Below, piece by piece: positions 4,300-61,420 of a DNA stretch of 64,000 nt. The DNA comes from Cyanidioschyzon merolae (taxonomy: Eukaryota). Numbering within the stretch: the stretch's first letter is position 1; the number at the start of each line of letters is the position of its first letter. Under the pieces are notes generated by a model. The model was not told the DNA's origin and did no database searches. It saw only the letters and a program-made list of their open reading frames with translations. The stretch lies in NCBI GenBank assembly GCA_000091205.1, contig AP006501.2; one strand, given 5' to 3'. The translations under genes and the position numbers were made by a program.

Positions 4300-6450
4300 T
4301 TATATCGTTGCTAGTGAATCGTGAGTCTCTGTTCTTTGTTCTAAATAGCGCGGTCGATATGCGCACCTCGAGATTTGGGAGTTACGAGACACGACGCGCA
4401 TCTCGCCATGAAGGGAAATACGATCGTGATCATTCGTTGTCTTCTTGCTCTAACGACAAGTTGCATTCGCGTAAAGTCCTAGCAAAGTATTGTTTTCATT
4501 TCAATCGTGTTTCAACTCTCAGGTTAGTGTACTCAAGTGATTTTTCACGGTTTATACCGAATGCGCTCAAAGTGCGTTATAAGAAAAATTAGGAAAAGGA
4601 AAGTTACGGAAAGGGAAGCGGAGGGTCCTGGAGACGCGGTTTCGTCGGCTAGCGGAGAAAAACGAAAAACAGTGCGGAGCAAAGCGGAGCACGAGAAGAC
4701 CAAGGAGCAAATGCAGGAGGCCGCACGTCAATGGCTGCAAGAAAGGCGACACTACGACGATATGGTAGTGAAAGACTGACTTCTCGGACATACCAGGGAT
4801 CCATCCAAGCAAAAGTTGTGAGAGGCCATCAGAAACCGTGTCGATTCGTACTCCATGAGTGTTACAAAGGCTTCGTCAGGGATCATGTATTTGGTGAGGG
4901 AGATGTATCGCGACGTGACGCACATGGAAACAGTCGAGAATCCGGAAGGGTTTTTCAACATGGCGTCTATCCGCCACCTGATGCTCGGCTCAGGGGAGAC
5001 GTCGATGAAACATGAGCGAGTGCACGCCCTCCACGAAAATCACACCAAATATCGCTTCAACGGTATTCGATACAGGGGTGACTGGGGTATTTACACCTAC
5101 GGGGCGATGAAGTACATCACGAACAAGAATAACCACATGATCGTGAACCTCAAACGTCTCGTGATATGCGCCGTCTTTGTGCTGTACCCGGGCCTCTCTC
5201 CAGAGGAATGAGATGGGCCATCGTCAGTGCCATCACCAACGATCGTCATCATGAAGATGAGGTCGAATTTGTGGACAAGAAGACCTCACGCAGGAGCACG
5301 AATAAAGCTTCTGCCCTGCGTGCGGCTACTCAAGAGCATCGTGCAGTCGTGGGGCTGGTCAATCCAGCAGAAGAGGTATCAGATATGGAATAAAGCATGG
5401 GAAAAGAAGTAACAACCAAATCCTGCGCTATTTCGTATTCCTGAACCGAGAACTCGAACACAAGGCGGAAATGGAGCAGGGTGTGGGGAACAATGCAGAG
5501 TCAGAGCAACGGAAGGCTGCGCTTCTGGAGAAGCGCTTCGACGTCGTTCGTATCTGCAACATCAAGTCACAATTTGGTACAATCGGCTTCAGAGTTCTTT
5601 ACGGCATCATGAACGAGATCTGTCCGGAGTTCGATGTAAGGAAGATAGAGTTCACCGGCGAAAACCGGGAATTCCATTGGAAAAATATCTTCGATTTCAA
5701 ACGTCTCAAAACGAGTAAGCAAAAAATATTCACGAGGATGATAGAAACCGATGGGGTATCCATGTGTGTACACTATCCGCGCTTGAAGGCAGATGGTCCT
5801 GTTGCGTCGTCGGCGTCGCCCGTGACGAAGCATGAAGGTGAGAAGAAGGCGGATCCTACGACGCAGAAAGTGCGGGGAAACGACTTTGTCGTTGGCGCGG
5901 CGAAGCATGAAGATGAGAAGGAGGCGGATCCTGCGACGCAGAAAGTGCAGGATAACGACTTTGTCAGTGGCGCGAACCCCGGAAACACGAATATCATAAC
6001 CATTGCAGCATGCAAGCGTGCGGGAGATGGTAAGGACGGCAACTTACGTCTGAAAGACACGCGTCTTTTGAGGTTCTCGAGAGCAAGATACTATCGAGAA
6101 TCCGGTATAATGAATGCGAGGAAGAAAATCGACACATGGAATGCAGGAATGAAGGATCACCTGGAAGCTATGAGCGGGGTAACGAGCCGCGGAGCGGACT
6201 TTGAAGCTTTTCTGAAATTCATGGGAGTTCGTGCTGCTCACTGGTAGGCGCTGTGGAGAGAATATACCAAGCCCCGGTGTTCTCGTCTGTGTATGAACTT
6301 GTACTGTGGGAAGAAGCGTGCATTTGCCAACTTTTTCTATCAGTTGAACGCCTTGGCTGGAGGACGAGAGTCAGAGAGTCGTAACAGCGACTGGAGCAGG
6401 GCTCTGCGCGTCCAAGAAAGGGAGCATACTCCCTGTATCGACAAGAGCGT
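4300..6450 (+). mobile_element. Repeated two-ORF element, copy B. ORF1 (unknown, coiled-coil N-terminus) is followed by a TnpB/Fanzor-like ORF2. Both are pseudogenised.
   Basis: It aligns at nucleotide and protein level to copy E (62380-64000). The 5' untranslated leader is conserved (4340-4600 vs 62425-62700). ORF1 has in-frame TGA stops at about 4782 and 4824 where copy E has Cys and Gln codons. A conserved TAA lies at the ORF1/ORF2 junction in both copies. Confidence 0.45.
5471..6450 (+). pseudogene. ORF2 of copy B, TnpB/Fanzor-like (RuvC-type OMEGA nuclease family). It is interrupted by an in-frame TAG at 6245 and has a degraded C-terminus.
   Basis: There is a RuvC-I-like block …[18 protein letters not shown]… (compare TnpB vvGIDlGikNlaTlS; here D is replaced by N), then …GADFEAFLKFMG… (compare TnpB sWgeFrrqLeYKa…G). 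Immediately after the TAG comes REYTKPRCSRLCMNLYCGKKR (compare eYTSqtCSxCG zinc finger), then AFANFFYQLNALAGG (a degenerate HaDvNAAiNIa RuvC-III). An internal 16-aa tandem duplication ([32 protein letters not shown]) is present. Confidence 0.4.
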
Positions 6451-6548
6451 ACAATGAGTGCGCTCACCGTTTTGTTGTAATACCGATAGATGAGTTCCGA
6501 ACGTCATACATACACCGTGAACTGGGACGTACACTTCACAGGGTCGAG

Positions 6549-6926
6549 ATGGAGCAGTACCAGCAAAGCCCTGGAGATATACAAAAACACAGAGCGCTGA
6601 CGGAAGAGCAAATGGAACGGAGGGCGAAATTTCGTGGACTAGTCGCACTGGTGAGTGTACCCAACGGCAAGAAACGTATAGAGTTTCTGAACCATGACTT
6701 TGACACAGCAATCAATGTAAGGCGATGTGCGGTGCTGGAGAACAGACCCCCCGCCCCACCCCCCGAGTTGACTAGAGCCAACTTCGTCGGGCGACCTCTC
6801 AAGGTCCCGTTGAACGGAAAGAAGCTGAAACCAATAGTAGCTGGCCGGTCGAGAAAAGCCTGGGAAGCGACTGCGCGTCTGCGTAGAGACATCCACGCTG
6901 TCGGCGTGATGTATGCGCGTTGGTAA
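6549..6926 (+). pseudogene. TnpB/Fanzor-like C-terminal fragment, copy C. It retains the RuvC-III motif and has no CxxC.
   Basis: …FRGLVALVSVPNGKKRIEFLNHDFDTAINVRRCAVLENRP…ELTRANFVG… aligns residue by residue with copy A (…LRGRLTLVSTSSGASKKRMEFVNRDFKAAINVSRYAALKSRPEELARLNFMG…). Confidence 0.35.
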
Positions 6927-7310
6927 ACCTGATTTGCCGGCGGTAGTTTCTTCAAAAAAAGCGCTCCGCAGCCAGCCATTTTGTGTGCGCAGCGAGCGTC
7001 ACTGCCCCTTTCAAAGCATATATTTCATATCCTAGTATCATAAAAGTGAGGGAGGTGTATTCTGAATACGAATATTCTGACGTGAAGAGCTCTTGATTTT
7101 TTTAAACACGACAGCAGCCCATACACGGAAGGGTGACGGCGACGGTGCGAGCGTGACAGGTTCGTGTACTTATCGAAGCAACATATCGCCCTCTAGGCCA
7201 CTGTTTTGCGCGGCGATATTTCCGCACTGAGGTGGGGTGTTCGTATTTTCTGTTTACAGGTGCCATATATTCCTTCATACGGTGCTAAGCTGTGATATAT
7301 TTCGGAAAAT

Positions 7311-8945
7311 ATGGATCAGGAAGCGGAGGCGCCGAGGATCCAGACTCCCAACGACCGTCCAGAGTCGGAGGGCGCGCCAGGCTCCGAACAGGATGGGAAC
7401 TCCCCATACTATCCCAGGATACATATCAAGTCGTTTGCTTTTGAACAAGAGCCTCATAGCGACATGGGATCTGCATGTTCGCTGTCGCCAACTGCCAAGA
7501 CGGAGGTGAATAAGCATGCCGTGCCTGCTGAGCAGCCCGCTGGTGCCGTTCACATGCAACCAGATGACCAGGGCAAGACACAAAGAAGTGTACAGAAAAA
7601 TGATGATCGTCCATCTGAAAACAGCGGTGGCTCGGAGATGAAACGAGCAGGCGTGGAAACGACGCGCCCCAGCCGAGCAGCGAAATATCGCACGGCTTCA
7701 CCAACACCCTCCACGAAAGGGCACAATCGTGGCACTGGAGCAACAAGAGGTAGGCCGAGAAAATACCCGGTAGCTTCAAGCCCATCAGCGGCGGAAGCCA
7801 GAATCACAAAGCGTCCGTATGGGGCATCGAACTCCATGCAACAGCACCATACCGACCGACACGTTGTGCCGGCGAGCGATGCACCGCAACCAGAGACCCC
7901 CACGGATATCGTCCTCTGCGCCTGCGGCAACGTGATCGACTTTGGGCCGATGATTCAGTGCTCTCGTTGCAAGGGCTGGTCACATAAGGTCTGTACGGGC
8001 CTATCGGACGCGGAATGGGAGCAGCTGCAAATGCAGCACGCCCGCTATCAGTGCTGGCTTTGTGCACCACGTAACGCTCGACCGAACTCCATCGCTGCAG
8101 ATGCAGTGCAGGCGTTGGCATCTGTTCGAACCGGTTCCAAGTGGAATACGATTATGGGCCGCATCATCGAGTCGGCGGCCATGGAAAACGCGGAGATTGT
8201 CGGTATGCCGCTCAGCAAACCGCGAAAGCATCGCATGGTTGAAAATATCATGACGGGCACGGGTCCGGGTCGAACGCATCGCTCGTCGGGCCCTCGAGTC
8301 GCGTCAACCGAGGGTTCAGTGCCGCTTGTGCGAGATAGCGCGAAAGAGAACGAATTTTTCGAAGCGCTCGCTGCACATTGGCAGCGCAAAACTGGGCAAC
8401 CGTGGCAAACCCCTATGTTTCGGGGGAAATTATTGGACCTCTATGCTTTATACTGGGGCGTCAAGGCACGCGGGGGCATTGACGCTGTGATCGCGTCGAA
8501 GCGCTGGCCCGAGATATGGCGCACCATGCGCAACTACTACCGCGAGTCTACGGATCACTCGTTCCGACTTCGCGTAGCGAGCCAGCAGTACTTGGCTGAC
8601 TTTCTGAGGCAGTACGCCGGGCCTCAGCCTTGGGATGTTGAGGTGCTGCACTCTGAGGAAAACGCGGACGAGGCCGTTACCCAGCAAAAAAAGCGAGCAC
8701 CTAGCGACCTGGTTCCAGCAGGCTATAAGGCGAGCCGGCGTGAGCGGGTCGTTACCACGGAGGAGTTTGTCAAACCTGAGCTGGCGCTCCCGAGCTCTGA
8801 ACCAGGTCAAACGAGTGCGAAGAAGTCTGAAACGAACGGCCCGCGGTCAGCACGGAGCCCAGCGGGTTCTGCTGTTCGCAAGGCAAGTGATGCAGTGAAA
8901 CCTGCGCCTCCGCAAAGCGACGACGACGAACTGAGCCTCGGGTGA
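7311..8945 (+). CDS. Chromatin protein with a PHD zinc finger and an ARID (AT-rich interaction) domain.
   Basis: Single 544-aa ORF. The PHD finger is CACGNVIDFGPMIQCSRCKGWSHKVCTG…YQCWLCAP (C4HC3 pattern). The ARID block is ENEFFEALAAHWQRKTGQPWQTPMFRGKLLDLYALYWGVKARGG. The flanks are low-complexity and basic. Confidence 0.75.
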   Translation: MDQEAEAPRIQTPNDRPESEGAPGSEQDGNSPYYPRIHIKSFAFEQEPHSDMGSACSLSPTAKTEVNKHAVPAEQPAGAVHMQPDDQGKTQRSVQKNDDRPSENSGGSEMKRAGVETTRPSRAAKYRTASPTPSTKGHNRGTGATRGRPRKYPVASSPSAAEARITKRPYGASNSMQQHHTDRHVVPASDAPQPETPTDIVLCACGNVIDFGPMIQCSRCKGWSHKVCTGLSDAEWEQLQMQHARYQCWLCAPRNARPNSIAADAVQALASVRTGSKWNTIMGRIIESAAMENAEIVGMPLSKPRKHRMVENIMTGTGPGRTHRSSGPRVASTEGSVPLVRDSAKENEFFEALAAHWQRKTGQPWQTPMFRGKLLDLYALYWGVKARGGIDAVIASKRWPEIWRTMRNYYRESTDHSFRLRVASQQYLADFLRQYAGPQPWDVEVLHSEENADEAVTQQKKRAPSDLVPAGYKASRRERVVTTEEFVKPELALPSSEPGQTSAKKSETNGPRSARSPAGSAVRKASDAVKPAPPQSDDDELSLG

Positions 8946-9214: not shown

Positions 9215-9732
9215 CGCCAGCACGGGGTCACTCGTCACAAGCGAGCACTCGAACGTGTGTAAGGCGGCCGCACTGACCACATGTGCACGAGTTCCGGAAA
9301 AACCGCAACTATCAGATACACGGTACTTGAGGTTTGCAATTTCGCCTGTCTTCGCGGTGGACTCTGCGACACTGGAAACGATTTCCAAGCAAAACCGCAA
9401 ATATTAGGTCTGCTGTTGTGCTTGTGCATGGCAGCTTTAACACCTGTTTTCGTGGTGAATCTTGAGATATTGGATAACCGCAATCGCAGCGCTGGAGTGC
9501 ACGCTGGCGCTCCTGATTTCGGTGAGCTTCGCGCGAGGCCCCGAATGACTCTCTGGTAACCGTGATGCTAGCCCCGAGAGCTCCGAGCTGCGAGGCGCCC
9601 GGGGTCCTCGGCTTTTCTGGACGGTATGATGCTAGAGTCTCTCGACACTAGATGCGTCGCGGAGCCGGAATGCGCTCCAGCGTCTGGGGTGCTGCGTGCA
9701 CGCCCCGAGACGCGACACCTGCAATGCATACG

Positions 9733-11832: not shown

Positions 11833-13864
11833 TTCACGTTCAAGGTGCTAGGCAGCAATATAACGCCCGACTCGAACGTCGTGTCGCCGTCCAAAAGAAA
11901 GAAAGCGCCGCACTTGGGAACGTCCACGACCTGCACCGAACAGCGCTTGTGAGCGGAACGGTCTACTGGACATCTCGCGGCCGTTGCTGCGAGGTTGTAT
12001 GGTACGAGTGCTGCCGCGGTTTGCGAAGAAACTCGGAGATGGAGACGGGTGCCATGGGTTTTGTCGGTTCCTGCTTATGAACGCGTCGAGCTGAGCTTGG
12101 ACGCTGTAGTAAAGTTATGGAGGAGCGTTCAAGCGGTCTGCGGGGAAAACTGGTGATCGGCAGGTGCATCGCCTACGGCTCGTCTGGGCTTGTCTATGAA
12201 AGCGTCGACTTGAGTTTCGACGCTTCGATCACGCGCCGTGAACCGTTGTCAAGTGCACTCGTCTTGCAAGCTGCATACGACTAGGCATGTTTACACATTT
12301 TATACCGCAATCGCTGTACTGGCGTCCCGAAACACTCACTTGCAGATGTTTCTCTTGGAAAACGAGCTCGAAAACTCCTCGTGAGCTCGATGAGCGATAA
12401 AGCTCGGCTGCGGGCTCCGTTCAAAGGCTGCCACGGTCCAGCTCGGTGCAGTGGTCGCGGTGCTGCCTGTCCTTAGGGCGCTCAAACCGTTCCGAGCGGC
12501 TAAAGAGCCGGCTCGCTGAAAAAGCATCAGGTAGTGTCACTGTATTCGCGACTCGGTGGCTGAGTTCTTGTGCGATGTGTCGAGCGAGAGAATCGGAGAA
12601 CGTCTGCCGGTTTCGTCCGTCAGGGAGGTTTTGGTTACCGGGGCAGGTCGCTGCAGTGCCGACTGCTGAAACGCGGCCTTTGCATGCCCATAACAAAGTC
12701 CAAACTTTCTGTGAGCCAGTACGCATCTTTGTCCTTCTACGCATCGGCGATTGATTCGGATATTGTCGTTTACTGAAACGGTTCAATGCCAGCAGCTATT
12801 CGGATTTCATCCTGGACAGCACCGAAACTCGACCTGCATCACATGCTCTGAGACTTTCAGAGCGTGCGCTCGATGCGGAGCATGAACCTGTGGAGCCGCT
12901 CCACCGCTGTCGAGTGCGGCAGCATGCGCGCGTTCATGATGCACCCGGCTTTTTTGCCCCGTGACGAGCTCTTTTTTTAGATGGGCTATGAGGCGCCACC
13001 GTGGACAAGTCGCAGCATACCACGCCTCGGGAGACGCATCGTCAACTGCTTGCTCCGGAGAGCGGCTCATCGTGACCGTCCTGCAATCGCACGGTTCCGG
13101 TATTCATGAGCCAACGTACGCGACTTGACGTGATGTAGGGCGCTTGACCCTAACCAGGCAATTCTGGAGACGCGAACGCTACGAGCAATCAGGGAAGAGA
13201 CCATCACGACTCAACGAAAGATTTCACGTTCCGCGAAGCGTAGGATCATATCCTAACGCCGCGATGGCTGGCGCTCTCAAGGACATCGTTTGCTCGCATG
13301 CCTCCTTGCCATTACGGACAGGCGGACTGGAAGCCTATCGGTTTTGTCTGCAAAATCGTTTAGAATTCGGGTTTCGTGCTGAGCTGAACAAGGCTACACG
13401 CTTGGATGGTCTATGCGATATCCTGAAACGACTTGTGCAGTCATCATCCCGTAGAGTTCAAGTAAACATCGGCACCGCCACGTGATAAACCGCCGCACTT
13501 GTCCTGTATGTGCCTCCGCGCCAATCTTGCGCTAAAAAGCTTCATGTACAGCACTGCAACTTCATATTTGCTCCGAGAGCTTTCATAATCCACCGTGCTC
13601 TCTACGCGAACACCCCCTCATCTCGGTACATGCGCCTTGGCTCTACAGCACACTCTTTCTCACAAAGGTTTGCCGATCTTCGCAACAAATACAATGCAAG
13701 TTGTTCCCGCTGTTCGGGATCCTTGTTACCCAGCGCAGCTGCGAGCCTCAAACGCCGACGCTTATGAGCGCTGGACAAGTTGCCGTCGCGGCACAGTCGT
13801 ATATGCTGTGCTCCGCGCGCGCGCACTAACGCAACCTCCCTCGTCGAGCCGGAGCCCACAAAAG

Positions 13865-17939: not shown

Positions 17940-19200
17940 TGGTGTGCGCGAAACCCCACGTAACATGAACGTGGAACGCTGAACCGCTTGCAACGTTGCT
18001 GGCATTCGATATTTTCCGAACTTTTCCGAAGATATGCAACCTGAAGATTCGAATTGCATGAATGAAGGCTGGCGGATCCGTATGTAGTTTCAGGATTGTG
18101 GGTCATGTCCAGGGAGTGGCTCCCGCGATTTCTCGGCACTGGAATTCGATACGTCACCGTCATCAAGATGATTTTTCGTGGCGCGCTCGAACAAGGGCTC
18201 CTAAAAGAATCGCTATCAGCATCGAGGGCACGCGCAAAAGCCTCTGCTCGTCCATTTCCGTACTCGTAATAGGTTCAAATCACGCATTCTTCAAGGTTTC
18301 GATCTTTGTGTTGCAGGGCGCCTGTTGAGTGCAGCGATTCGCACCACTCAATTGACGACGATGAAGAACATTCCACGTGATCCATTGACGATGTTTTCAT
18401 GCGCTCACGCCGAAACCTCGCTGACCGCCTCTCGGCATATCATCGATTCTGTTCGCTAGATCAACCATCATCTGTTCCGTGTCATCGATGAAATGGCACT
18501 GGGCTGCAGCATGATGCTTTTTGCGGGAGTTGCTCCCAGACGTTCAAATCTCTTCTATTCCTTTTACACGGAAATGGGTCTTGGACTAGGAGTTCAGTTA
18601 CGGTAGCGATCGTTGCCACTGCAGTGTGCGTCATCATGTCGCATAAAGGGAACGGAGACAATTGAAGACTTCTCGGTGCGTTCTCTAATCAGGCGTTCCC
18701 CTCCGGTACCCGTATCACCATGGAAAACATCGCGTTCAAGATCTCCTCTGTCGAATGGAATAGCATGTGCTTGCATATGCAGTCGATAGCGTACTCACCG
18801 AGGGTATCGCGCAGACGCAGCCCGTGATCGATGTTACGTCAACGGGCGCGAACATGGAGCAGAGCACCCTGATGAGCTGCATGGAACCCCAGGGGGCACG
18901 TATCAAACGATGAAGCAAGCCTTCTCGTTCCAAGGGGCGGCTATCGGGGAAGCATTTATAATGGATATACGGAAACACCTGATCATTGCCAAGTGTCGTC
19001 CCGGTGAAGCGCGCAGAAAGGCGGTATGTAAAAAATGAGAATAGAAAGCGATGCGCAGATCGCAGCGTTCGCTTTTAGCATAAAATACGTCGACAACTGC
19101 CGAGAGAAACAATGTAGAGACTTTCAGGCTGCCATCAGCACACTTCGACTGCTGACAATCAAGCTGAAGGGAAAGGAAAACCAAGCAGTCGCAGAAACGG
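17940..19200 (+). repeat. Dispersed approximately 1.3-kb repeat, copy R1.
   Basis: Aligns over about 1.26 kb with 20940-22200 at a constant offset of about 3.0 kb and about 70-75% identity. Conserved blocks include CGAT(A/T)TTTTCCGAACTTTT, ATGGAAAACATCGCGTTC…CGAATGGAA(T/C)AGC(A/G)TGTGC and ATGAAGCAAGCCTTCTCG. It is also homologous to the IR arms (33879-35252 and 36858-38234) and to 60870-61420. Confidence 0.6.
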
Positions 19201-19713
19201 CCCCTGGAGGCTGGTCAATACTCGTGTTGATGACAGTGAGAGTCATCCAAAACTTGAGCGTTTATGCCAGGGCCCGACGCCCTTTTTCCATTTCATTCTG
19301 ACATGGGTGCTGATGGAAGCAACCGAACGCATCAGCGTTCACCTCATGCCGGGGATGCCAGTCAAGCCCTATAGACACTGATCAACGGTACCGTTTTGCG
19401 GGGCAGCAGCAGCGGCAGCAAGTCCCTGTTTAACATTCGTGTCCAAATGCTTTGCGGACACGTGCCGTGCTGCTGCGAGTCGCGGCACTCGGTAACGGGT
19501 CGAAGACCTCGTACCCAGCGAATTGCCCGAAGCCTCCCGAATTCAAGAAGCGAAAAAGATTGCCACCGACTCTCCGAAACAGCAGCGCATCTGGTGCACG
19601 GAAGCAGCTCATGTAACAAGCGACAGCGTTCCAGCGCTAGACCCGGGGCCAATGGCAGTCTGGTTGCCTTTTGCAACATGCCTAGGATTTGTATTTGCCA
19701 TTTCGAGGTACTT

Positions 19714-20688
19714 TCATCGAGCAAGCATTTTCTCCAGTCTTCGTTGCCACTCCACAACCATATCAAAGGAAAGCGCGCCTCCGAAGATATCCAAAGCGGA
19801 ACCGATTGTGACATCTACTCGGCCGCAACCAACAAGTCGAACGCGTTCCAGGTCGGCTAGGTCTCGAACGCCACCCGCATACGTTGCCGGTACTGGGGAC
19901 CCGACAGCCAGCTCATGCACCAATGCTTCGTCGATACCGATTTGCTTGCCTTCAACGTCCACGGCATGTACTAAAAACTCTGCACAGTATTCGCTGAGCC
20001 ATTCCAGGAGCTGGCCACTTATTCGCAAGTCAGTTCGTCTTGTCCATCGATCCGTGTAAACGTAGTATGCGCTTTCGCTCCCCGAAATATGACTTCGGCA
20101 GCTGAGATCAAGAACCAGACGCTCTCTGCCAATACGGTGGGCTAGGCGAAGCAGTCGGGACTCATCCAGCCGACCATCCCGAAACACGTACGAAGTGACG
20201 ATCACATGGCTGGCACCGGCCTCCAAAAACCGTTCTGCATTCTCCTCCGTAATGCCACCTCCGAGCTGCATTCCCTGCGGATATGCGGCAAGAGCAGCAA
20301 GCGCAGCACGTTCCGATGCTTCGCGATCCCCTCCGAGGAGGATGATATGGCCTCCAGGCAGCGCATGCTCGCGGTACAGCGAGGCGTAGTAGGCCGCGGG
20401 TTGCGTCGCTTCGAAGTTCACCACTGACGCCCGGCTCCCGTCTGCTGATAGTGATGACCCGACTATCTGTTTAACCTTTCCGTTATGAATGTCAATGCAG
20501 GGTCGAAACCGTGTCACGCGTTCAGCAGTCGCACGAGCGGTCGGCGTCCCGGCTGTGAGCCTGGGTCGCGCTCGAACACGGGCAACTGGCGGGTGCCTGG
20601 CGCCCTCCGGGGATATTCCGGTGATTCGTCTCGTCAACGGCGGAGCGTGAATCCCCGAACTGGTGCTTGGAAAACAGAAGAGGAGCAT
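19714..20688 (-). CDS. hisA: ProFAR isomerase of histidine biosynthesis (HisA/HIS6-type), with an N-terminal extension.
   Basis: 324-aa ORF. FRPCIDIHNGKVKQIVGSSL… matches the eukaryotic HIS6/HisA N-terminal signature. It has a (beta/alpha)8-type glycine-rich C-terminal half (…VTIGSALDIFGG…). An approximately 60-aa S/T/R-rich presequence is present. Confidence 0.8.
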   Translation of the reverse strand: MLLFCFPSTSSGIHAPPLTRRITGISPEGARHPPVARVRARPRLTAGTPTARATAERVTRFRPCIDIHNGKVKQIVGSSLSADGSRASVVNFEATQPAAYYASLYREHALPGGHIILLGGDREASERAALAALAAYPQGMQLGGGITEENAERFLEAGASHVIVTSYVFRDGRLDESRLLRLAHRIGRERLVLDLSCRSHISGSESAYYVYTDRWTRRTDLRISGQLLEWLSEYCAEFLVHAVDVEGKQIGIDEALVHELAVGSPVPATYAGGVRDLADLERVRLVGCGRVDVTIGSALDIFGGALSFDMVVEWQRRLEKMLAR

Positions 20689-20939
20689 GAGAACGGCTCA
20701 GCAGGTGTAGGCTCATGCGCAGTGCTCGACGGCTGTCACAGGTACCTCGACGACTGGAGACTCAAGGGTTGTGTATGAAAGTCGTCCGGAGACACGAAAA
20801 CACGCGTTTCAAAAACTTTTCCCTGAGGTCCACCACGCTCCGCTCTTCACCACTGGGTTTCGGGAATGCGCCTCGCAGCTACGCCAGAGCAGTTCAAGCC
20901 TTGTGCACGCCAGACAGGCACAGGCGCGCTGCGTCTTCC

Positions 20940-22200
20940 ACGGCAACACCCGTGTCGGATGAAAGTGGAACACTGGGCTGCTCGCATTGGTGCAGCTTTA
21001 CGATTTTTTCCGAACTTTTTTAGATGTAAAACCGCGGCTTTCGGAAAGAAGGAATATCGGCTTACGGGTTTATACGTAGTTTTAGGATTTTTGGGTGTCC
21101 TTATGGAATGGCTTCTTCGAACTTTGTCCGCTACAGCTCGTTTCGTCACCGGAATCCAGATGGGATTCTAGATCAGAATCTGGATGATTCGCAAAGTCGC
21201 CGAACATGAGTTCGAGAATCAGTCGACATCAGTTCCCGATTCATTCGAGCATGCCTCCAGTCTTCTACATTCCTTTCATGTTTCATGTTTAAACCAGATT
21301 TTCTTCAACTCTCCGATCTATGCCTTGCAAGGTGTTTCGTGGGCGCAGCAATTCGCACTTCTGGATTGACGACAAGAAAAACTCGCGGCCGTCGCTTGAC
21401 GACAAGTTCCAGAGCTCATGTCGAAAGCTCACCCAAGTCGTCACGTTTCGTAAACGATTCTGCTCGAAAGACGAGTCCTCCTCTATTTGTGGCCCTCTAC
21501 AAAACGACATTCGACTCCAGCACGACATCGCTTTTAGGGCTTGCTCCTAGAGGCTCCTATTTCCTCTGTTTGCGTCGAAACCGGATTCGGAGTCAGACTT
21601 GAGCCATCGCACCGATTGCTTCTAGTGGAGCGTTTGTCACCGCTGTGCACGAAGAGCGTGAAGACGAATCTTAATTTCTCGACACGTTCTCTGGTCTGGC
21701 TTTTCCTTCCGGTGCTCGTTTCATCATGGAAAACATCGCGTTCCACAAATCCTCTACCGAATGGAACAGCGTGTGCGTGTGTGTGCACCCGGCATCCTTC
21801 TCACAGAGGGATCCTCCAGAAAACACCTGTTACCATAGATTACGTCACCTGGCACGTAACTGGAGCAGGGCATCGAGGGGAGCCCCCTGTACCTGTCAAG
21901 GGATGTATCGAGCCATGAAGCAAGCCTTCTCGCATCAAATGGCGCTGGCCGAACGAACGAATGAGCGTGGTGAGCTTGTAGGAACACTTGACTTGGTCCA
22001 AGTGTCACCGATGCGACGGGCACATTGAGACTGTACGCATCGAAGAGGAAAATTGCAACTGACGCGTAGATCGCGACGACTTCCTGTGCACGAAATGCGT
22101 TGACAATAGCTGGAAACTGCGAATTCCGGACTTGAACGCTGACATCAACATCCTTCGACTTGTGAGAATGGAGCTGGAGAGACTAGCACATTTAAAGCCG
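20940..22200 (+). repeat. Dispersed approximately 1.3-kb repeat, copy R2.
   Basis: See R1. It lies in the same orientation, 3.0 kb downstream, and the two copies flank the HisA gene. Confidence 0.6.
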
Positions 22201-22323
22201 GGTATGAGAGAAAGCTAAAGTACGAGATTACAGAAAAAGCCTACCAATTCTGGTATCGTCGGCAATTGAGCAAGAAAGCGCTCCCAGGAGCCGAAACATC
22301 CCTGTTCGGCGCTGTGGACCTTC

Positions 22324-22339
22324 ACACACACACACACAG
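22324..22339. repeat. (CA)8 microsatellite.
   Basis: cacacacacacacaca, immediately 3' of the 22384-23805 gene. Confidence 0.9.
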
Positions 22340-22383
22340 ATATACAGCGGCTTTCTGCATTTTTCTCAGCCCAAAATGAGGTT

Positions 22384-33475: not shown

Positions 33476-33878
33476 CCTCCTGCGGATTGATATGTCTTTG
33501 TTCTACAAAGGTTTTCCGGACACTGCCTCACGCTGGACCCGTTTCTGTCGAGAGCCGTGCCTGCTGCTGCCAGCGCACTTGGCTTCGGATCTGGACGTGT
33601 TGGCGCAACCGCATCCGGCACCTGCTCTCCGTTGGCAGGAAACGGCGGGCTCGAATGCTCGCCTCCATCGCTGTGGTTGTGGAATCGACACGTCTCACGG
33701 GATATGCGGATGCGCGAATGCTACCGATATTTAGCCAAAAGAAGTAGATCCTTGGCAGTTGCTCCTGTACCCAACGAGGCCCAGCATGGTCGTCACGTCG
33801 CGCTCGGCGGTTCGATCCGGCGACAAGCCTGGAGCAACGCTTGGCGTGGGCGCTTGTCGCGCCGCTACATCTATGACT

Positions 33879-35252
33879 GATGAAAAGCGAACACTCAAGT
33901 GCGTATTCTGTTCCCGTCTTTGAGGTTTGTACGAAGTTGCTTTTTAGGTGTACAGCCTCGGCGTTCAAAGTGCAGCAACAAAGGGTCACGGATGTATGTA
34001 TCGTTTTCGAGGATGCTTGGTTGTGGTTTCGGAGCGGCGCGTTAGGCGCCTTGCACGCGGAATTCGCGACGTCATCGTAATCAAGACGATTCACAAAGCC
34101 CTGGAACAGCGCTTCGTAAAATAACCGGTCTTGTTATCTAGTTCATACGTACGAGACCGGGCTCTTCGCCCTTGCTTCCGTGTAACACGCCCAATTCACG
34201 CATGCTTCGAGTTTTTGGTCTATCGGTTTCGATGCCATATGTTGATGCAGCAACTCGTGCCGCTGCGCGGACGACGAAAAGCACCCGGCAACATGTCTCG
34301 ACGACCTCTGCACAAGCGCAAGCCGGACACACACTGAACGTGTCACGCCAAACAATCCGTGCTGTTCGAAAGCCAAATCCTCTGATCTGAGTGGCGATCA
34401 ACGGAACGGCATGCCACAGCGGTAGAATGATACCTGGCACGGAACGCGACTGCAGAAGCACCCGTCGCCTATGTTTGCGTAGGAGCGGGTGCTGGACCCG
34501 GACTGGACTGATCACAGCGATCGACTCGGGTGGAGCGTCGACGGATCGACGTCTCTCGAATTGGTTACAAGCCTGGATTCTGCAGTCTGTAGGTGTGTCA
34601 GCATGGACGCCCTCGTACTCCACAACCTGTTTATCGAATGGAAGAGCGTGCGCTTGCGTGTGCAGGTTACGGAGCACTCGCCGAGGCGATCGCCCGGACG
34701 TGGCAAGTGGTGTTACGGTACGGCACCAGGCGCGTAAACGGGGGATAGCACCGAGGGCAGCTTTCTGTACCAGCCACGAGCACGTACCGATCGACGAGGC
34801 AAGCGTTCACGCACCGCACAGAGCAGCCCTCGGAGGACAAGGGCGACAAGCGCGAGAAGAAGGAGGAAGATTCTTGGATGTTCGGTAACGTCCGACCGCA
34901 ATCGCGTGTCACCGTTGCAAAGCGCGCACCGAGCTAGCGTACAACGAAGCTGAACACGGCAAGAGAAGCGTCGATCGCCAACTCCGTCTGGGTGTCAAAT
35001 GCGTCGACAGCAGCCGGAACCCGCGAAACCGGAACCAGAACGCTACCACCAACATCCTTCGAGTGCTCACAAGGGAGCCATTTTGGAATGAAAGACCTGC
35101 GCACCTGACTCTGGAGACAGACGAGCGGTACCGGAAGCAGTCCCCGACAGCCATTGCCGCAGACTGTATCGATGCCATCGGGACGAGACCCAGTCCTGAG
35201 CGGATCCGCTTCTGGAAGTGAATCTGTCCAATTGTGCTCTAAATTGGATGTA
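33879..35252. repeat. Left arm of the large inverted repeat (1374 bp). It belongs to the approximately 1.3-kb R family.
   Basis: The reverse complement matches 36858..38234 at about 98-99% identity. Duplicated ORFs with near-identical proteins confirm this (34138..34677(-) vs 37436..37975(+); 33880..34080(+) vs 38033..38503(-); 35067..35402(-) vs 36804..37046(+)). Boundaries were checked at nucleotide level: the outer junctions are …ctgatgaaaagcgaac / …gttcgcttttcatcgaac, and the inner junctions are …ctctaaattgg|atg / ttataccc|aatttagag…. Confidence 0.85.
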
Positions 35253-35682
35253 GGGCATTGCCGCAACACGCAACGAATACGCCAGACCCAAGACTAGAAC
35301 GGAATCGGCCCAGCTCGTCGATTCCCATACGCGCAACTGCTTATCGAATGCATATTCTTTACAAGTGTCTCGGCAGACTGCCGCATACACACAGACTTGC
35401 ATGCACTAAGTAGAGCTACGGCTCGCATGCATCTCCTCCGCACAATTCTTTAAATCTACTGGGTAACCGTTCTCTATCGTAAAAATCAAGCACCCATAGA
35501 TTCATACGAGCCGCATCCCTACCTTTTGCGGGTAATGGCGCACTGCACTGCACTCAACTGCACTGCCCGCTCGCGACTCGTAACCGCCAAAGCATGTTGT
35601 GATGCTCCAGGTGCCGAATGCCGTCCAGGTTCATGCAACGGTGCCCGCGTCCAATATCTTGGATGACATCGCCCACAGAGGC

Positions 35683-36705
35683 CTAGTCCGGCGCACTGAG
35701 CTTCTTGCGATCTTGCGGTCTTGCTACGAGAAAGACCTTGCGTTGCGCCACATTGAAGCCGACGATAGCGCCGCAGCGTTTGCAGCGCCGCTCGTCACGC
35801 TTTCTATCCGAAGCGCTCGAGAAAAGACAGGTCACATCGTTTCCGCAATTAGGACAGGGTCCCCGGACTACCTCCGGAGAGCCCAAATCCAAATAGCTCA
35901 GCATTCGTGGCGTCAGGTAGTTGCTGAACCACGCAGTTACGACAGCGATGACCACGAAGAGCACAGACGCTCGAACGGCGACCTGATCATCGAACGTTAG
36001 CTGAATATGGCCGAGACAGATGAGATCAAGGAGCGCAAAACCCAGGATACTCGATAGGCAAAGCAGCACGGCGGGCGCGTAAAGAAGCAGCAGCTTGAAC
36101 CGATCCTCCACTGCGTCTCCGAAAAGCAGATACATAAGTCGTTTGTCCATCGACGAATCAGACTTGAGGATGCTTTGCATGTCGAGGGTGCTGGTTCGAC
36201 TCGCTCCCAGCTTGGCCTTGAGTCCGTCGAGCTCTTCGGGACTTAGACGCAGCTCGTTCAGGAGCCGTCTGTCCATGTCGCGTTGCTGCGCAGCTTGAAT
36301 CCAAACCTTCTCCAAGTCATTTAACCGAAGAGAACTAGAACCTAAATGTTCCAACTCGTCACGGAGAGTCTTGAATTCGCCGTCGGTGAGAACCGGGTTG
36401 CCTTCATAGTATGAGCGCAGCGCTTCAATAAACAGGTTCTCTAGGGCGCCTCTGTACTCACCGTCGTTATTGCCGTCGATGCGCCGAATCCATAAATGGT
36501 CGTCGTTTTCGAACGGTTCTCGTGATATGCTCATATGGTACCGTCGTGGACGCGAGAGCAGTCGCACGCTGGCACCACGGCAAACGGGAAACCGCGCAAT
36601 ACCAACGGAACACGCAAACGGGGCCGCGCACCGTCGAAAAGGCACACCTATGGTGCTTGTCAGCCAACACAGCGGTGCGTTGGAGCGGGACCCGGGCCTC
36701 CGCAT
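35683..36705 (-). CDS. PGRL1: PGR5-like protein 1 (PGRL1) homolog. It is the sole gene in the spacer of the inverted repeat.
   Basis: 340-aa ORF. FIEALRSYYEGNPVLTDGEFKTLRDELEHLGSS resembles plant PGRL1 FLQALQSFYYDGKAIMSNEEFDNLKEELMWEGSS. Two predicted TM helices follow. The C-terminal paired Cys motifs RGPCPNCGNDVTCLF…RCKRCGAIVGFN resemble PGRL1 KGPCPNCGTENTSFF…KCTNCGTAMVYD. An N-terminal presequence is present. Confidence 0.7.
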   Translation of the reverse strand: MRRPGSRSNAPLCWLTSTIGVPFRRCAAPFACSVGIARFPVCRGASVRLLSRPRRYHMSISREPFENDDHLWIRRIDGNNDGEYRGALENLFIEALRSYYEGNPVLTDGEFKTLRDELEHLGSSSLRLNDLEKVWIQAAQQRDMDRRLLNELRLSPEELDGLKAKLGASRTSTLDMQSILKSDSSMDKRLMYLLFGDAVEDRFKLLLLYAPAVLLCLSSILGFALLDLICLGHIQLTFDDQVAVRASVLFVVIAVVTAWFSNYLTPRMLSYLDLGSPEVVRGPCPNCGNDVTCLFSSASDRKRDERRCKRCGAIVGFNVAQRKVFLVARPQDRKKLSAPD

Positions 36706-36857
36706 GGCAGCGAGAACAACAACTGAAACGTTTCTGGCCTAAGTACAGCAAAACGCGGTGCACGTTGCCCAGCTTTGCGGAGAAGATCTCCTCTTGCAAA
36801 TGAATGAAAGGTGGTCGACGACCTGCCTACGGTGGCTGGCTGAGACTCCCGCGCACA

Positions 36858-38234
36858 GATTATACCCAATTTAGAGCACAATTGGACAGATTCACTTCCA
36901 GAAGCGGATCCGCTCAGGACTGGGTCTCGTCCCGATGGCATCGATACAGTCTGCGGCAATGGCTGTCGGGGACTGCTTCCGGTACCGCTCGTCTGTCTCC
37001 AGAGTCAGGTGCGCTGGTCTTTCATTCCAAAATGGCTCCCTTGTGAGCACTCGAAGGATGTTGGTGGTAGCGTTCTGGTTCCCATTTCGCGGGTTCCGGC
37101 TGCTGTCGACGCATTTGACACCCAGACGGAGTTGGCGATCGACGCTTCTCTTGCCGTGTTCAGCTTCGTTGTACGCTAGCTCGGTGCGCGCTTTGCAACG
37201 GTGACACGCGATTGCGGTCGGACGTTACCGAGTATCCAAGAATCTTCCTCCTTCTTCTCGCGCTTGTCGCCCTTGTCCTCCGAGGGCTGCTCTGTGCGGT
37301 GCGTGAACGCTTGCCTCGTCGATCGGTACGTGCTCGTGGCTGGTACAGAAAGCTGCCCTCGATGCTATCCCCCGTTTACGCGCCTGGTGCCGTACCGTAA
37401 CACCACTTGCCACGTCCGGGCGATCGCCTCGGCGAGTGCTCCGTAACCTGCACACGCAAGCGCACGCTCTTCCATTCGATAAACAGGTTGTGGAGTACGA
37501 GGGCGTCCATGCTGACACAACTACAGACAGCAGAATCCAGGCTTGTAACCAATTCGAGAGACGTCGATCCGTCGACGCTCCACCCGAGTCGATCGCTGTG
37601 ATCAGTCCAGTCCGGGTCCAGCACCCGCTCCTACGCAAACATAGGCGACGGGTGCTTCTGCAGTCGCGTTCCGTGCCAGGTATCATTCTACCGCTGTAGC
37701 ATGCCGTTCCGTTGATCGCCACTCAGATCAGAGGATTTGGCTTTCGAACAGCACGGATTGTTTGGCGTGACACGTTCAGTGTGTGTCCGGCTTGCGCTTG
37801 TGCAGAGGTCGTCGAGACATGTTGCCGGGTGCTTTTCGTCGTCCGCGCAGCGGCACGAGTTGCTGCATCAACATATGGCATCGAAACCGATAGACCAAAA
37901 ACTCGAAGCATGCGTGAATTGGGCGTGTTACACGGAAGCAAGGGCGAAGAGCCCGGTCTCGTACGTATGAACTAGATAACAAGACCGGTTATTTTACGAA
38001 GCGCTGTTCCAGGGCTTTGTGAATCGTCTTGATTACGATGACGTCGCGAATTCCGCGTGCAAGGCGCCTAACGCGCCGCTCCGAAACCACAACCAAGCAT
38101 CCTCGAACACGATACATACATCCGTGACCCTTTGTTGCTGCACTTTGAACGCCGAGGCTGTACACCTAAAAAGCAGCTTCGTACAAACCTCAAAGACGGG
38201 AACAGAATACGCACTTGAGTGTTCGCTTTTCATC
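36858..38234. repeat. Right arm of the large inverted repeat (1377 bp), in the orientation opposite to the left arm.
   Basis: See the left arm. Confidence 0.85.
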
Positions 38235-49864: not shown

Positions 49865-50430
49865 CAAGGAGGAGCTGCAGCTGCGACTGTGTCTCTCAGC
49901 ATCTAGTTCTGTCTCATAGTATTTCACATTGTCTCATCGTACACCATACGCGCATGCGCGATTGCTATCGATTGCAAGCAAAGCGGCGAGTACGCCTCGC
50001 GCTCACGAAAGCGCTGCAATCGATGGAGCTCGGAACATGATTCTCGTTGGGAATGTTGACCGATAAATCGTTTGCACGGGCGCCGCAACATCGATATATG
50101 ATAAAAAGGTGGCGAGTTGACGCAACGCATCTGCCGATTCTTGCTTATCCGTGTGCCGATGAATACAGCGGACGGCTCGACGAGCCCCTGACACCAGAAG
50201 TCTATCGCAGACTAAAGGCGTCCGCCGCACCCAGCTCTGCTGAACGGAAACTCATGAACAGCTTGACTGTCTCTGCAACCAACGCGAAAGCCGACTCTGC
50301 CGAGTCAACTGCTCTGGCAGGTCATTGAAGAATAATACCCGCATGCAGCTGTGCGCTCACAAGAATCGTAGCGCCCAACGTTGAAACCATCCAACGCACG
50401 CGACGCTGTACGGGATATTGGCGTAGCGCG

Positions 50431-50672
50431 CGCATCCCAAGTGACATGTGCACTGGCGAAACGCGTGCACTAGCCATGTGTCCCTTTGGACAGCGCGTTA
50501 CGTCGCAGGCTGATGGCGATCTGCAAGGCACAGACGCCACATGACACCAGCGCATCCCAAGTGACATGTGCACTGGCGAAACGCGTGCACTAGCCATGTG
50601 TCCCTTTGGACAGCGCGTTACGTCGCAGGTTGATGACGATCTGCAAGGCACAGACGCCACCTGACACCAGCG
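50431..50672. repeat. Tandem duplication of a 120-bp unit (2 copies, about 97% identical).
   Basis: 50431-50550 is repeated at 50551-50670 with three or four mismatches. ORF 50322..50660(-) is an artefact of the duplication. Confidence 0.9.
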
Positions 50673-51655
50673 CTCGCGACAGCTGCACGCTTCTGCGCAT
50701 GCCCGGCGACTGCGCTGCTCAACTTGACCTGCTTCGCAGTTGCGCGGATGGGGCGAGCAGACGGCTATCGCGGCGGCGGTTCACGCTTATATGCATGCAA
50801 GCTCGTATGCAATCCGTATCCGAACCATGAGTCGCTCACCAGTGAAGCGCTGAGACGTCAGTCCCAGAGACCATCCAGCGTCATTGGATCTCCGCAATCG
50901 CCTTAGGCTGCTTTCCAAACGTAGGGATCGACGCGAGGTTCTTGATCTGCGCCAAAACGTTGAGAGTGAGCTTTCACCGTTGCAGCGCACGGTGACTACG
51001 TGAGCTGGCGAGTCTGCCCTACACTGGTCAGCAGCGAACGCAGACAATATGCGTACCTAGGACACTGCTCGTGAAATTGGACGATTCAGAGTCTGCGGCA
51101 TCTCTTGAAACTGGCTTTGACGTTCTACGGTTGATGCAAGAGACGCTGGCGCCCTGTATGTTGCGCGTATGTGCCATGTCGCGTGCACTCGCCGCAGGCT
51201 TCTCCAGTGCTGCACCGTGAATACTAGCAGGTTATTCTGGAAAGCCATACGCATATTGCAGTCATCGTTGCGGCATCGGGCACCCTTAACGTACATATGA
51301 TTCCAGCGTAGTTCACGACGAGTGCATATCGAGCTGGATGCTAGGCTGCGGTACGCGCAGGAGAGCGCAAACGAGGCTATCAGGGGCGCTTCCAGCGCAG
51401 ATGCAGCGTATTGGGATTAAAATGTACAAGTATGGACATAGCACCCAACCGTTTGAATTTTCAAAGCGCTTCATCACAGCGGCGCGCGCGCCTTGCAAGC
51501 GGCGCTCCTGTGCGATACGGAACAGCTCCGCAGGCTTTACAGCGTCTGCGACACCGTGAAACCAAAATACCCACAAATTCGTCACTTTTTTCTACCTCTG
51601 ATTTAATTATCAGGCGTGTGCACCACAGAAACTCGGACGCACGTACGGGAGGCCG

Positions 51656-60360: not shown

Positions 60361-60483
60361 CTCCGTCTATTTGGCGGCGACTCCGCCAGGTCTACGACGC
60401 CTCCCATCCCTGGTACTTCAGCGCACCTGCGCCACAAATGGCGCGAAGCGCTCGGCGTCGCCGCAGGACACCGGCAAGCTGGT

Positions 60484-60625
60484 GTGCCATAGGAGTGTGG
60501 TATAGGCGTGTGTGCCACAGGAGTGTGGTATAGGCTTGTGCTATAGGAGTGTGTGCTATAAGGGTGTGCTATAGGCTTGTGCTATAGGCTTGTGCTATAG
60601 GCTTGTGCTATAGGGCGTGTGCAAT
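60484..60625. repeat. Minisatellite of degenerate 13-14-bp units (GTGCTATAGGCTT / GTGTGGTATAGGC).
   Basis: ggagtgtggtataggcgtgtgtgccacaggagtgtggtataggcttgtgctataggagtgtgtgctataagggtgtgctataggcttgtgctataggcttgtgctataggcttgtgctatagggcgtgtgc. Confidence 0.85.
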
Positions 60626-60869
60626 GAAGGTAGAGCACGGAGCAGGCGTTTGGTTTCTGTATGTCGACGTGTTTTCCGGGCTTCTTGTACCTGTCCAGTC
60701 CTGGGAATGGAAATGCAATCGTAAGTTCATTCGAATTGATTCATAGGTCGAGGATGCTTGGTGGTGTTTTTGGAGCGAGTCCTTGGACTGCATGCAGCTG
60801 GAATTCGTTGCGTCACCAGGATCAGGATGATTCGCAATAGAAGAGACAAAGAGCTAGGAAACTGACCGA

Positions 60870-61420
60870 TATCATGATCCAGTGTTTGCGAAGACGTCTC
60901 GGCTCTTCCTGTTTCCTTACGTAGCGTATGTTGAAAAATCACGCATTGTGCACGTTTTTGATCGGTCTGTTTCAAGGCTAGTCATTGCCACAGCACTGCG
61001 CGTCGCTGGGCTGACGAGGAAACGAAAACTCGACTTGGTGCACTGGCGAGTGCTTCACAAGCTCATGGCAAAATTTCACTGAACGTGTCATGTCGAATAA
61101 TTATCGGATTCGTTCGAAGGACAAAAGCTCATTTTTTTGTGACTATTGACGAAACTGGATTCGACATCCGTACGCTACCGCTTACGAGATATGCAGGCAG
61201 TGGTTCTCGTCTCTTCTAATTGCATGGAAATTGGTCTTGGATTAGCACGTGGGTCATTGCGTCGATTGGCTCGAGTGGGGCGTGCGTTACCGCGTTCCAC
61301 GATGAGCAGGTAGACGGATCGAACTTGCTAGACTTGATCTCCAGACCTGACTTTTCTTCCCACACTAGTTTCAACACAGACAGCACCGCTTTCCACGAAT
61401 TCTAACTCATATGGGACATT
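60870..61420 (+). repeat. Partial copy R5 of the approximately 1.3-kb R family (about 550 bp, truncated).
   Basis: Blocks AAATCACGCATT…, …GACGA(G/C)(G/A)AA(A/C)…AAAACTCG…, …AGCTCATG… and …CTCTTCTA(A)TT…GGAAAT(T)GGTCTTGGA(T/C)TAG are co-linear with R1 18260-18590 and R2 21270-21600. Confidence 0.4.

Follow-up and report, generated by a model that had tools for sequence, protein, structure and literature searches.

The repeats designated R, which occur in a 64-kb stretch of Cyanidioschyzon merolae DNA (the window), are very probably the decayed, now passive remnants of an ancient DNA transposon belonging to the IS630/Tc1-mariner type. The window itself is gene-dense, with long unbroken open reading frames (ORFs) and a G+C content of ~55%. 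The ancestral unit would have been ~1.4 kb in length, bounded by terminal inverted repeats (TIRs) of ~25 bp (CACCCGTGTCAGATGAAAATGGAAC ... GTTCCATTTYWTTCTGACAYGGGTG), and it probably inserted at TA. Its interior appears to have been chimeric: the first ~720 coding nt would have specified part of a DDE_3 transposase, with its helix-turn-helix N-terminus and two of its catalytic residues, the first and second Asp. Within 15 nt past the second Asp motif the sequence would switch, in a different frame, to the 3′-terminal ~160 codons of a gene for a Fanzor1/TnpB-like nuclease, including a GYGTG...WEHLTT segment, a CxxC...CxxC zinc ribbon and NRDLNAAINIL. The master copy probably arose by internal deletion or fusion, as a non-autonomous derivative, from a mariner-type element with a Fanzor gene of its own. 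A full transposase would have mobilized this copy in trans in one old burst, and the copies have since decayed neutrally. Much later, one copy (IR-B) probably arose from another (IR-A) by duplication and not by transposition, giving a 1.37-kb inverted pair that may have served, or may still serve, as a homologous recombination substrate that flips the enclosed PGRL1 segment. The present role of R would be that of intergenic padding and a recombination substrate.

Copies of R in the window and at other genomic sites

A profile search with nhmmer located five collinear copies of R in the window, all with E = 0: R1, R2, two inverted arms (IR-A and IR-B) and R5 near 60.6 kb. R1, R2, one inverted arm and R5 aligned collinearly across ~1.35 kb in a four-way MAFFT alignment. 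An earlier interpretation of this DNA (the sequence-only reading) had described R1 and R2 as direct copies with 70–75% identity. The two are indeed homologous and direct, with two exact-seed anchors in register at offsets of 2994 and 3005 bp, but the identity was overstated, being 59% end to end and ~71% only in the best blocks. The best BLAST block aligned 18670-18927 with 21676-21932 (70.8% identity, E ~1e-25 to 1e-26), and further blocks aligned 17965-18170 with 20959-21162 (66%) and 18287-18369 with 21301-21382 (72%). Both units are also longer than the 1.3 kb previously assigned to them (17940-19200 and 20940-22200).

R1 (17953..19309, + strand) is a decayed full-length copy by its full-length nhmmer match and has 74% identity to the family consensus described below. 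It consists of a left TIR (~17953-17978), a transposase-derived part (~18032-18752), a junction (~18752-18764), a Fanzor-derived part (~18764-19214) and a right TIR (~19276-19309), and tblastn matched 18298-18764 to the DDE_3 transposase P0015 (E = 5.5e-6). R2 (20947..~22337, + strand), also a decayed full-length copy by nhmmer and tblastn, is the best preserved in the window. Its left TIR (20947-20972) is followed by a transposase-derived part (21024-21758), a Fanzor-derived part (21770-22239) and a degraded right end (~22308-22337), at which a (CA)n microsatellite was observed (22323-22340). By tblastn, 21039-21770 matched amino acids 6-236 of P0015 (E = 1.9e-19), and 21763-22176 matched amino acids 318-501 of the Fanzor-like protein P0013 (E = 2.5e-12). 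R5 (60612..~61800, + strand; nhmmer match) is the most decayed copy and is truncated at its 3′ side where sequence resembling TE-N2_CMe/CMe-1A starts; the CMe-1A 5′ region matched 61801-62421, directly 3′ of R5. BLAST of R5 against the consensus reached only 60738-61765, and its tblastn match to P0015 had E = 1.4e-13. A minisatellite of 13–15-nt units (GTGTGCTATAGGN) at 60482-60614 directly precedes the left end of R5.

Metagenome contigs were scanned with a degenerate 27-nt core motif, which returned 29 loci. Eleven of these represent the same region as the window in other samples (99% identity), and the remainder come from seven or more additional sites in the genome, which together hold ten or more additional R copies, partial ones included. 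Full-length copies measure 1317–1381 bp. The copies are pairwise 53–67% identical in a star-like pattern, the sole exception being one 99% pair (E and F), and each is 66–75% identical to a leave-one-out consensus. No R homologues were detected by BLAST or nhmmer in the syntenic regions of two related genomes, the closer represented by L006 and L007 and the more distant by L008 (ENA ERZ1300892 NODE_6). The suggestion in the sequence-only reading that R is a repeat that inserts was well founded: R is a genuine dispersed family of mobile-element origin.

Chimeric coding content of the family consensus

As transposon bursts give rise to old families with such a star-like pattern, a majority consensus of 1396 nt was built from 12 copies (five window loci and at least seven other metagenome sites). 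In one frame, consensus nt ~540-870 matched Pfam DDE_3 with E = 3.7e-9, the score of 37.0 bits exceeding the curated cut-off of 28.6. This match spans profile positions 3-117 of 146 and includes both D1 (IDET) and D2 (MDNIAFHKS). In another frame, nt ~976-1201 matched Pfam Cas12f1-like_TNB, the TnpB/Fanzor zinc ribbon, with E = 6.6e-7 and 29.8 bits, again above the curated cut-off (26.3). The C-terminal zinc ribbon of Fanzor/TnpB is accordingly legible in the consensus as WEHLTTAKCHRCEG...RLCMKC...NRDLNAAINIL, and the motif is degraded in individual window copies. Signal of the ancestral genes was found only in the family consensus and not in copy-to-copy comparison.

A database search with the frame-corrected consensus retrieved intact relatives of both parts. 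P0015 and P0021 are DDE_3 transposases; the Fanzor-like relatives are P0013 (551 amino acids) and P0012, a fragment of 216 amino acids on a 1.1-kb contig. The search also retrieved many "proteins" that are no more than ORFs called on decayed R-like copies. P0015 aligned with consensus nt 97-432 at 44% identity, which covers the N-terminal DNA-binding region, and with nt 425-880 at 39% (E = 5e-46), the latter alignment running through LFVAIDETAF, GYAPRGSR and IMDNIAFHKS. Amino acids 301-525 of P0013 aligned with consensus nt 763-1296 (E = 3e-37); convincing similarity begins at RMEQRALAYAAD and continues through KKPVIVGYGTGRGNGGGHRGEPSVPVK, WEHLTTAKCHRCEG, RLCMKC and NRDLNAAINIL. The inverted arms likewise matched P0013 by tblastn (E = 3e-9; IR-A 34632-34823). 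The gene for P0013, which lies at 5569-7224 of a 7.8-kb contig with 56% G+C (L038; JGI Ga0399894_004485), is the closest intact relative of the Fanzor part of R, and the two are similar even as DNA (nhmmer E = 1e-11). Neighboring genes on that contig (RNA-ligase, 2H-SAK and Peptidase_S74) give it a virus-like look, and a scan of IMG/VR yielded no relatives of P0013.

Two apparent changes of frame are present in the consensus. The one at nt 425-432 is an artifact within a run of A residues: five of ten copies have 8 nt, the consensus took 9, and removal of one base restores ...TRKKTRR... as in P0015. Unlike this artifact, the frame switch at the transposase/Fanzor junction is real, with all 12 copies aligning free of gaps and the two homologies abutting within ~15 nt in different frames. 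In ~340 kb of related sequence, neither the missing C-terminus of the transposase nor the matching N-terminus of the Fanzor protein was found, one weak match to the latter sitting in a separate CMe-1A element. The absence of any parts beyond the junction implies that the chimeric 1.4-kb unit was itself amplified.

Only the part homologous to P0013 amino acids ~318-525 is represented in R. The RuvC-I DPG region (P0013 amino acid ~210) is absent from all copies, so that R does not contain the complete RuvC-like D-E-D fold of a Fanzor/TnpB nuclease. A guide (omega) RNA was likewise not apparent: no 200-column window of the 12-copy alignment, the 3′ region included, had a conserved structure, and no Rfam match was obtained. 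A sequence search of the PDB with the consensus ORF gave no match.

Ends of the element

Family similarity starts ~12 nt upstream of a conserved ATGAAA and stops at ...TTCTGACAYGGGTG. When the left end of the consensus (CCCGTGTCAGATGAAAATGGAACA) was compared with the reverse complement of its right end (CCCATGTCAGAATAAAATGGAACA), 21 of 25 positions were alike (TGTCAGA..AAAATGGAACA). Definition of the termini, which the sequence-only reading had proposed, thus gave TIRs of ~25 bp. In the better-preserved copies TA abuts the ends, and in IR-A it does so on either side, which would fit the TA target of this superfamily. Long terminal repeat or Helitron ends had been candidates in view of TG...CA-like ends and of a small hairpin where the inverted arm ends, and they were dropped on the strength of the 25-bp TIRs and the DDE_3 content.

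Several observations sit less comfortably with descent from an IS630/Tc1-mariner-type transposon by a burst and neutral decay. The third catalytic residue of the transposase was not recovered, its expected segment being occupied by Fanzor-derived sequence. An exact TA is present at only ~2–3 of six left flanks and three of nine right flanks, the copies being too old for proof on this point. No autonomous parent with both complete genes between R TIRs was found in the ~340 kb of related sequence; no transposase accompanies the intact Fanzor-like P0013 on its contig, and the P0015 contig stops 89 nt past the gene. Individual ORF fragments of R in the window had no Pfam match, and the domain calls come from the consensus and from tblastn with database proteins. 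The ORF of a relative, P0009, reads through the junction in frame, and an in-frame fusion in some lineage is possible. Finally, conservation within the family is highest around the junction, a pattern not predicted by pure neutral decay, with the qualification that part of the conservation among the newly found copies is ascertainment bias, as the 27-nt search motif was taken from there.

The inverted pair and the PGRL1 segment

Of the two inverted R copies, IR-A (33868..35252, + strand) is the older; it keeps the terminal 12 nt of the family on its left flank, with TA before them. IR-B (36866..38234, − strand) is a recent inverted partial copy of IR-A without the outermost ~12 nt of the left TIR. 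In a self-BLAST, 33879-35247 and 36866-38234 showed 11 differences over 1369 bp (99.2% identity). Both arms belong to the R family by nhmmer and flank a single ORF, in agreement with the sequence-only reading, although their start-to-start offset is 2987 bp and not 2979 bp. The unique segment between them (35248..36865) carries a PGRL1-like ORF (35683-36705, − strand) that matched no Pfam family and has only seven database relatives. Its product has two hydrophobic segments and a C-terminal CPNCG...CKRCG (CxxC...CxxC) pair, a combination that fits PGRL1. Homologues in L006 and L007 are 87% identical to the window protein and that in L008 is 72% identical, and PGRL1 occupies the same syntenic position in L006 and L008. 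L006 has a short repeat family of its own, unrelated to R (7725-7957, 9385-9617 and 13354-13577; 79–85% identical), around its PGRL1 and deaminase genes, which includes an inverted pair spanning the two.

When the window was compared by BLAST with L006, L007 and L008, the PGRL1 segment matched in reverse at all three loci and all neighboring genes were collinear. The segment is therefore inverted in the lineage of the window. The obvious way in which it would have been flipped is recombination of one inverted copy with the other. A 33-kb metagenome contig that is 99% identical to the window (Ga0080006_1206402; loci L022, L009 and L016) carries the segment the other way round with respect to its patatin-side flank, and IR-A-type and IR-B-type bases form a mosaic in one of the contig's arms. 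The opposite orientation could be a real polymorphism or, equally, the arbitrary path of an assembler through a 1.37-kb repeat.

The likeness of each left flank to the family left ends was scored against random windows, giving P = 0.017 for IR-A and P = 0.94 for the outer flank of IR-B. A 3-nt ATG microhomology is present at the IR-B junction. Given that the outer flank of IR-B is without the family terminus, IR-B is regarded as a recent inverted copy of most of IR-A and not as a product of transposition. Two old, independent insertions later homogenized by gene conversion would also yield near-identical arms, an account that we consider unlikely but deserving of attention. TA follows both inner ends, three of the five bases just past the identical block are alike, and a mosaic arm such as that of the metagenome contig is to be expected if the arms exchange sequence; the mosaic may, however, be an assembly consensus of both arms, and the outer flank of IR-B, with a score below the random mean, bears no trace of the family left terminus, which the flank of IR-A does.

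The inversion relative to the related genomes and the opposite-orientation contig with its mosaic arm polymorphisms are also compatible with a more far-reaching proposal, namely that the PGRL1 segment is a naturally flipping cassette in Cyanidioschyzon populations and constitutes a recombination-based switch on a cyclic-electron-flow gene. This is a decidedly speculative idea with little probability in its favor; if true, each flip would change the R end and the upstream context that face the PGRL1 promoter.

Conserved cores and the present state of the copies

Two short cores stand out as conserved, and the sequence-only reading took them for promoter, terminator or small-RNA signals rather than parts of a protein ORF. 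Core 1 (18720..18775, + strand) was resolved by a thirteen-copy alignment, codon reading and tblastn into the codons of the second transposase Asp (M-E-N-I-A-F-K) followed by the fusion junction. Its sequence, ATGGAAAACATCGCGTTC...CGAATGGAA.AGCGTGTGC, corresponds to the second catalytic-Asp motif of DDE_3 (M-D/E-N-I-A-F-H-K) leading into the Fanzor-derived start. Core 2 (18911..18928, + strand), ATGAAGCAAGCCTTCTCG, was read from the alignment and tblastn as coding for MKQAFS within the Fanzor-derived part, where the consensus has GMYRTMKQAFTRHR and P0013 has AMYRALKMAFKRHR. To judge by these codons, both cores appear to be relics of the most conserved coding motifs and not regulatory signals.

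It is accordingly very unlikely that R is a functional non-coding module (a promoter, terminator, small RNA or long non-coding RNA) whose cores regulate the bracketed genes. What speaks for such a role is that R fills the intergenic space beside gene starts, the HisA ATG being separated by 268 bp from the left end of R2 and the PGRL1 ATG by 161 bp from the inner end of IR-B, and that conservation peaks around the core. Against it, the cores translate to known transposase and Fanzor motifs, the orientation of R relative to neighboring genes varies across sites, and the compact L008 runs the same genes without R. Rfam gave no matches in the window, and a tRNA search was also negative. RNAalifold analysis of the 12-copy alignment on both strands returned a consensus energy of ~0 with no consistent excess over column shuffles. 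R thus has neither the covarying structure nor the curated match by which a structured or regulatory RNA family is recognized.

The copies were also assessed for coding capacity. Every copy examined has stops in all frames across the unit, together with frameshifts, and those of the window have no intact ORF. The copies have no ORF in common, none of the six frames was favored when copies were compared by tblastn (scores were similar throughout), and mismatches between copies had no 3-base periodicity. A column-shuffle test of amino acid similarity gave z ≤ 3.6 everywhere in R, as against z = 5–11 for a DEAD/SPRY helicase gene used as a control (three sequences, 56–66% identity, a divergence similar to that of R). 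Since the coding, periodicity and RNA tests were all negative, the present R copies are under neither coding nor structural constraint.

These results bear directly on the possibility that R is a live or domesticated protein-coding family, perhaps multi-exon or a transposase-Fanzor fusion that is still in use. A 415-codon open frame in the consensus, predicted ORFs of 190–360 amino acids on R-like copies in other metagenomes, and the in-frame passage of P0009 across the junction would fit such a family. It is nevertheless highly improbable, given the stops in every frame of every copy examined and the lack of frame-specific conservation; moreover, the long consensus frame is partly an artifact of a 1-nt homopolymer ambiguity, and the "proteins" in the database change frame when set against real homologues. 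The sequence-only reading had named, among the outcomes that would refute it, that R proves to be a multi-exon gene family. This came true in spirit, in that R is a family of dead transposon genes, and not in the sense of a multi-exon host gene.

The HisA interval and the arrangement of R around genes

The interval between R1 and R2 contains a HisA (His6-type) host gene (19714..20688, − strand; Pfam His_biosynth, E = 5.5e-26), which lies outside the element. It is the sole long ORF there, as the sequence-only reading maintained in stating that R1 and R2 flank only HisA. The HisA and DUF1838 genes of L008 are separated by ~200 bp that contain no R, which implies that R2 was inserted in the lineage of the window or lost in L008. 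R1 and R2 are old independent insertions that came by chance to occupy both intergenic spaces beside HisA. An adjacent pair of this kind is expected by chance about half the time, according to our own calculation with ~20 intergenic slots and four independent insertions. L008 keeps the gene order of the window with intergenic gaps of ~50–500 bp (87 bp from PGRL1 to the deaminase gene), and in comparison with it the extra intergenic DNA of the window lineage appears to consist mostly of transposon relics.

At the other genomic sites, R adjoins genes for a PP2A-A subunit, an HD-domain protein, a cyclin, an F-box/SPOC protein, an HCF101-like NTPase, an oligopeptidase, a RING protein and a phosphoglucomutase. 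Inverted pairs were found at two sites, ~4.0 and ~4.6 kb apart and enclosing two genes each, and a direct pair at one site, ~10 kb apart and enclosing four housekeeping genes. These varied spacings and ordinary neighbors leave no room for a fixed 3-kb module or for a bias toward plastid-function genes, and both generalizations of the sequence-only reading are abandoned. A composite transposon that moves the enclosed gene as cargo, also envisaged there, can hardly be credited: the layout of R, a ~1-kb gene and R does occur twice in the window and R does have TIRs, but R1 and R2 are old, dead and only 59% identical, relatives without these R copies have HisA and PGRL1 at the corresponding syntenic positions, IR-B is without one terminal repeat end, and the pairs elsewhere enclose two to four unrelated genes.

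Other repeats in the window

Two copies of CMe-1A, a Fanzor1 repeat, are present in the window: one at 3766-~6900 (+ strand) and one at 61801-64000, cut by the end of the window. They have 79–80% nucleotide identity to the published 5′ consensus and 63–77% protein identity to CMe-1. Their presence points to C. merolae or a near relative as the source of the DNA, and exact matches to window proteins turned up only in JGI and Logan assemblies. The copy at 3766-~6900 has frameshifts and stops, and its Fanzor ORF contains an internal tandem duplication (74 bp × 2, 89% identity, 5826-5974). In the copy at 61801, the ~620-bp 5′ part (TE-N2_CMe-like, 61801-62421) is inverted with respect to the Fanzor ORF (62846-64000). 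A further tandem duplication of 124 bp × 2 (97.6% identity) was observed at 50430-50553 and 50550-50673.

A diverged repeat family with ~67–70% identity was also detected, aligning 2100-2611 with 24562-24078, 2178-2302 with 6749-6631 and 2432-2618 with 4669-4488. One member fills part of the 2-kb gap from the DUF1838 gene to a gene for a 570-amino acid protein, and others lie inside or beside a CMe-1A copy. Weak tblastn matches resembling RDxNAAxNI were obtained at 2172-2237 and 6690-6770. These repeats are probably further fragments of CMe-1A type.

Comparison with known systems

With its TIRs and partial DDE_3 domain, R very probably belongs with the IS630/Tc1-mariner group. The helix-turn-helix N-terminus and the D...D core are homologous to those of the intact P0015 and P0021, and the size of ~1.4 kb, the short TIRs of ~25 bp and the TA beside better-preserved ends are all in keeping with that group. 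R differs in that its transposase is cut right after the second Asp and joined to Fanzor sequence, and in that all copies are dead. As it has no RuvC-I and no guide-RNA structure, R does not qualify as a Fanzor gene and is instead a transposon relic with a Fanzor fragment.

Within C. merolae, the closest point of reference is CMe-1A, an old Fanzor1 repeat with ~150 copies of ~3.2 kb that are ~80% identical to their consensus (PMC3627910). A 253-copy, 3.2-kb interspersed repeat has been described in the genome of this alga (PMC1955436), and it probably corresponds to CMe-1A. R resembles CMe-1A in being a similarly old, diverged family with Fanzor-derived sequence in the same kind of host. By contrast, CMe-1A has no TIRs and no transposase part, and the Fanzor fragment of R is closer to P0013 than to CMe-1. 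No nucleotide similarity was found between R and a 630-nt segment of the CMe-1A 5′ consensus, and R is a separate family.

The C. merolae genome is also reported to contain eight class II elements in 16.5 Mb, weakly similar to, and most like, bacterial transposases (PMC1955436). These may be R or a related family. DDE_3/IS630 transposases are of the bacterial type that a BLASTX search would report; on the other hand, eight elements in 16.5 Mb contrast with five R copies in the 64-kb window alone. C. merolae is cited for an extremely low transposon content, put at 0.7% of the genome (PMC1955436). Given five R relics and two CMe-1A copies in 64 kb, old diverged DNA derived from transposable elements is under-counted by protein-level searches. 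In practical terms, 1.4-kb intergenic blocks that look empty are dead transposons, which should be masked in annotation and not mined for regulatory motifs or small RNAs. The inversion of gene size around PGRL1 that followed from a recent inverted copy indicates, in addition, that relic repeats still reshape a very compact genome.

The nearest architectural parallels are the elements PGv-1, PUl-1 and PUl-4, in which Fanzor1 genes were captured by Mariner elements; chimeric architectures are common for Fanzor elements (Bao & Jurka 2013, PMC3627910). Like R, these combine a Mariner/IS630-type transposase and a TnpB-like Fanzor in one TIR-bounded element. They are larger (3.3–3.8 kb), with complete Fanzor ORFs of 640–810 amino acids and, in some, complete transposase ORFs, whereas R comprises approximately two thirds of a transposase and one third of a Fanzor gene in an out-of-frame fusion that was itself amplified. 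A transposase-Fanzor chimera as the amplifying unit adds one more case of Fanzor genes in chimeric elements. R is a new family of an already known type, a dead chimeric mariner/IS630-Fanzor transposon.

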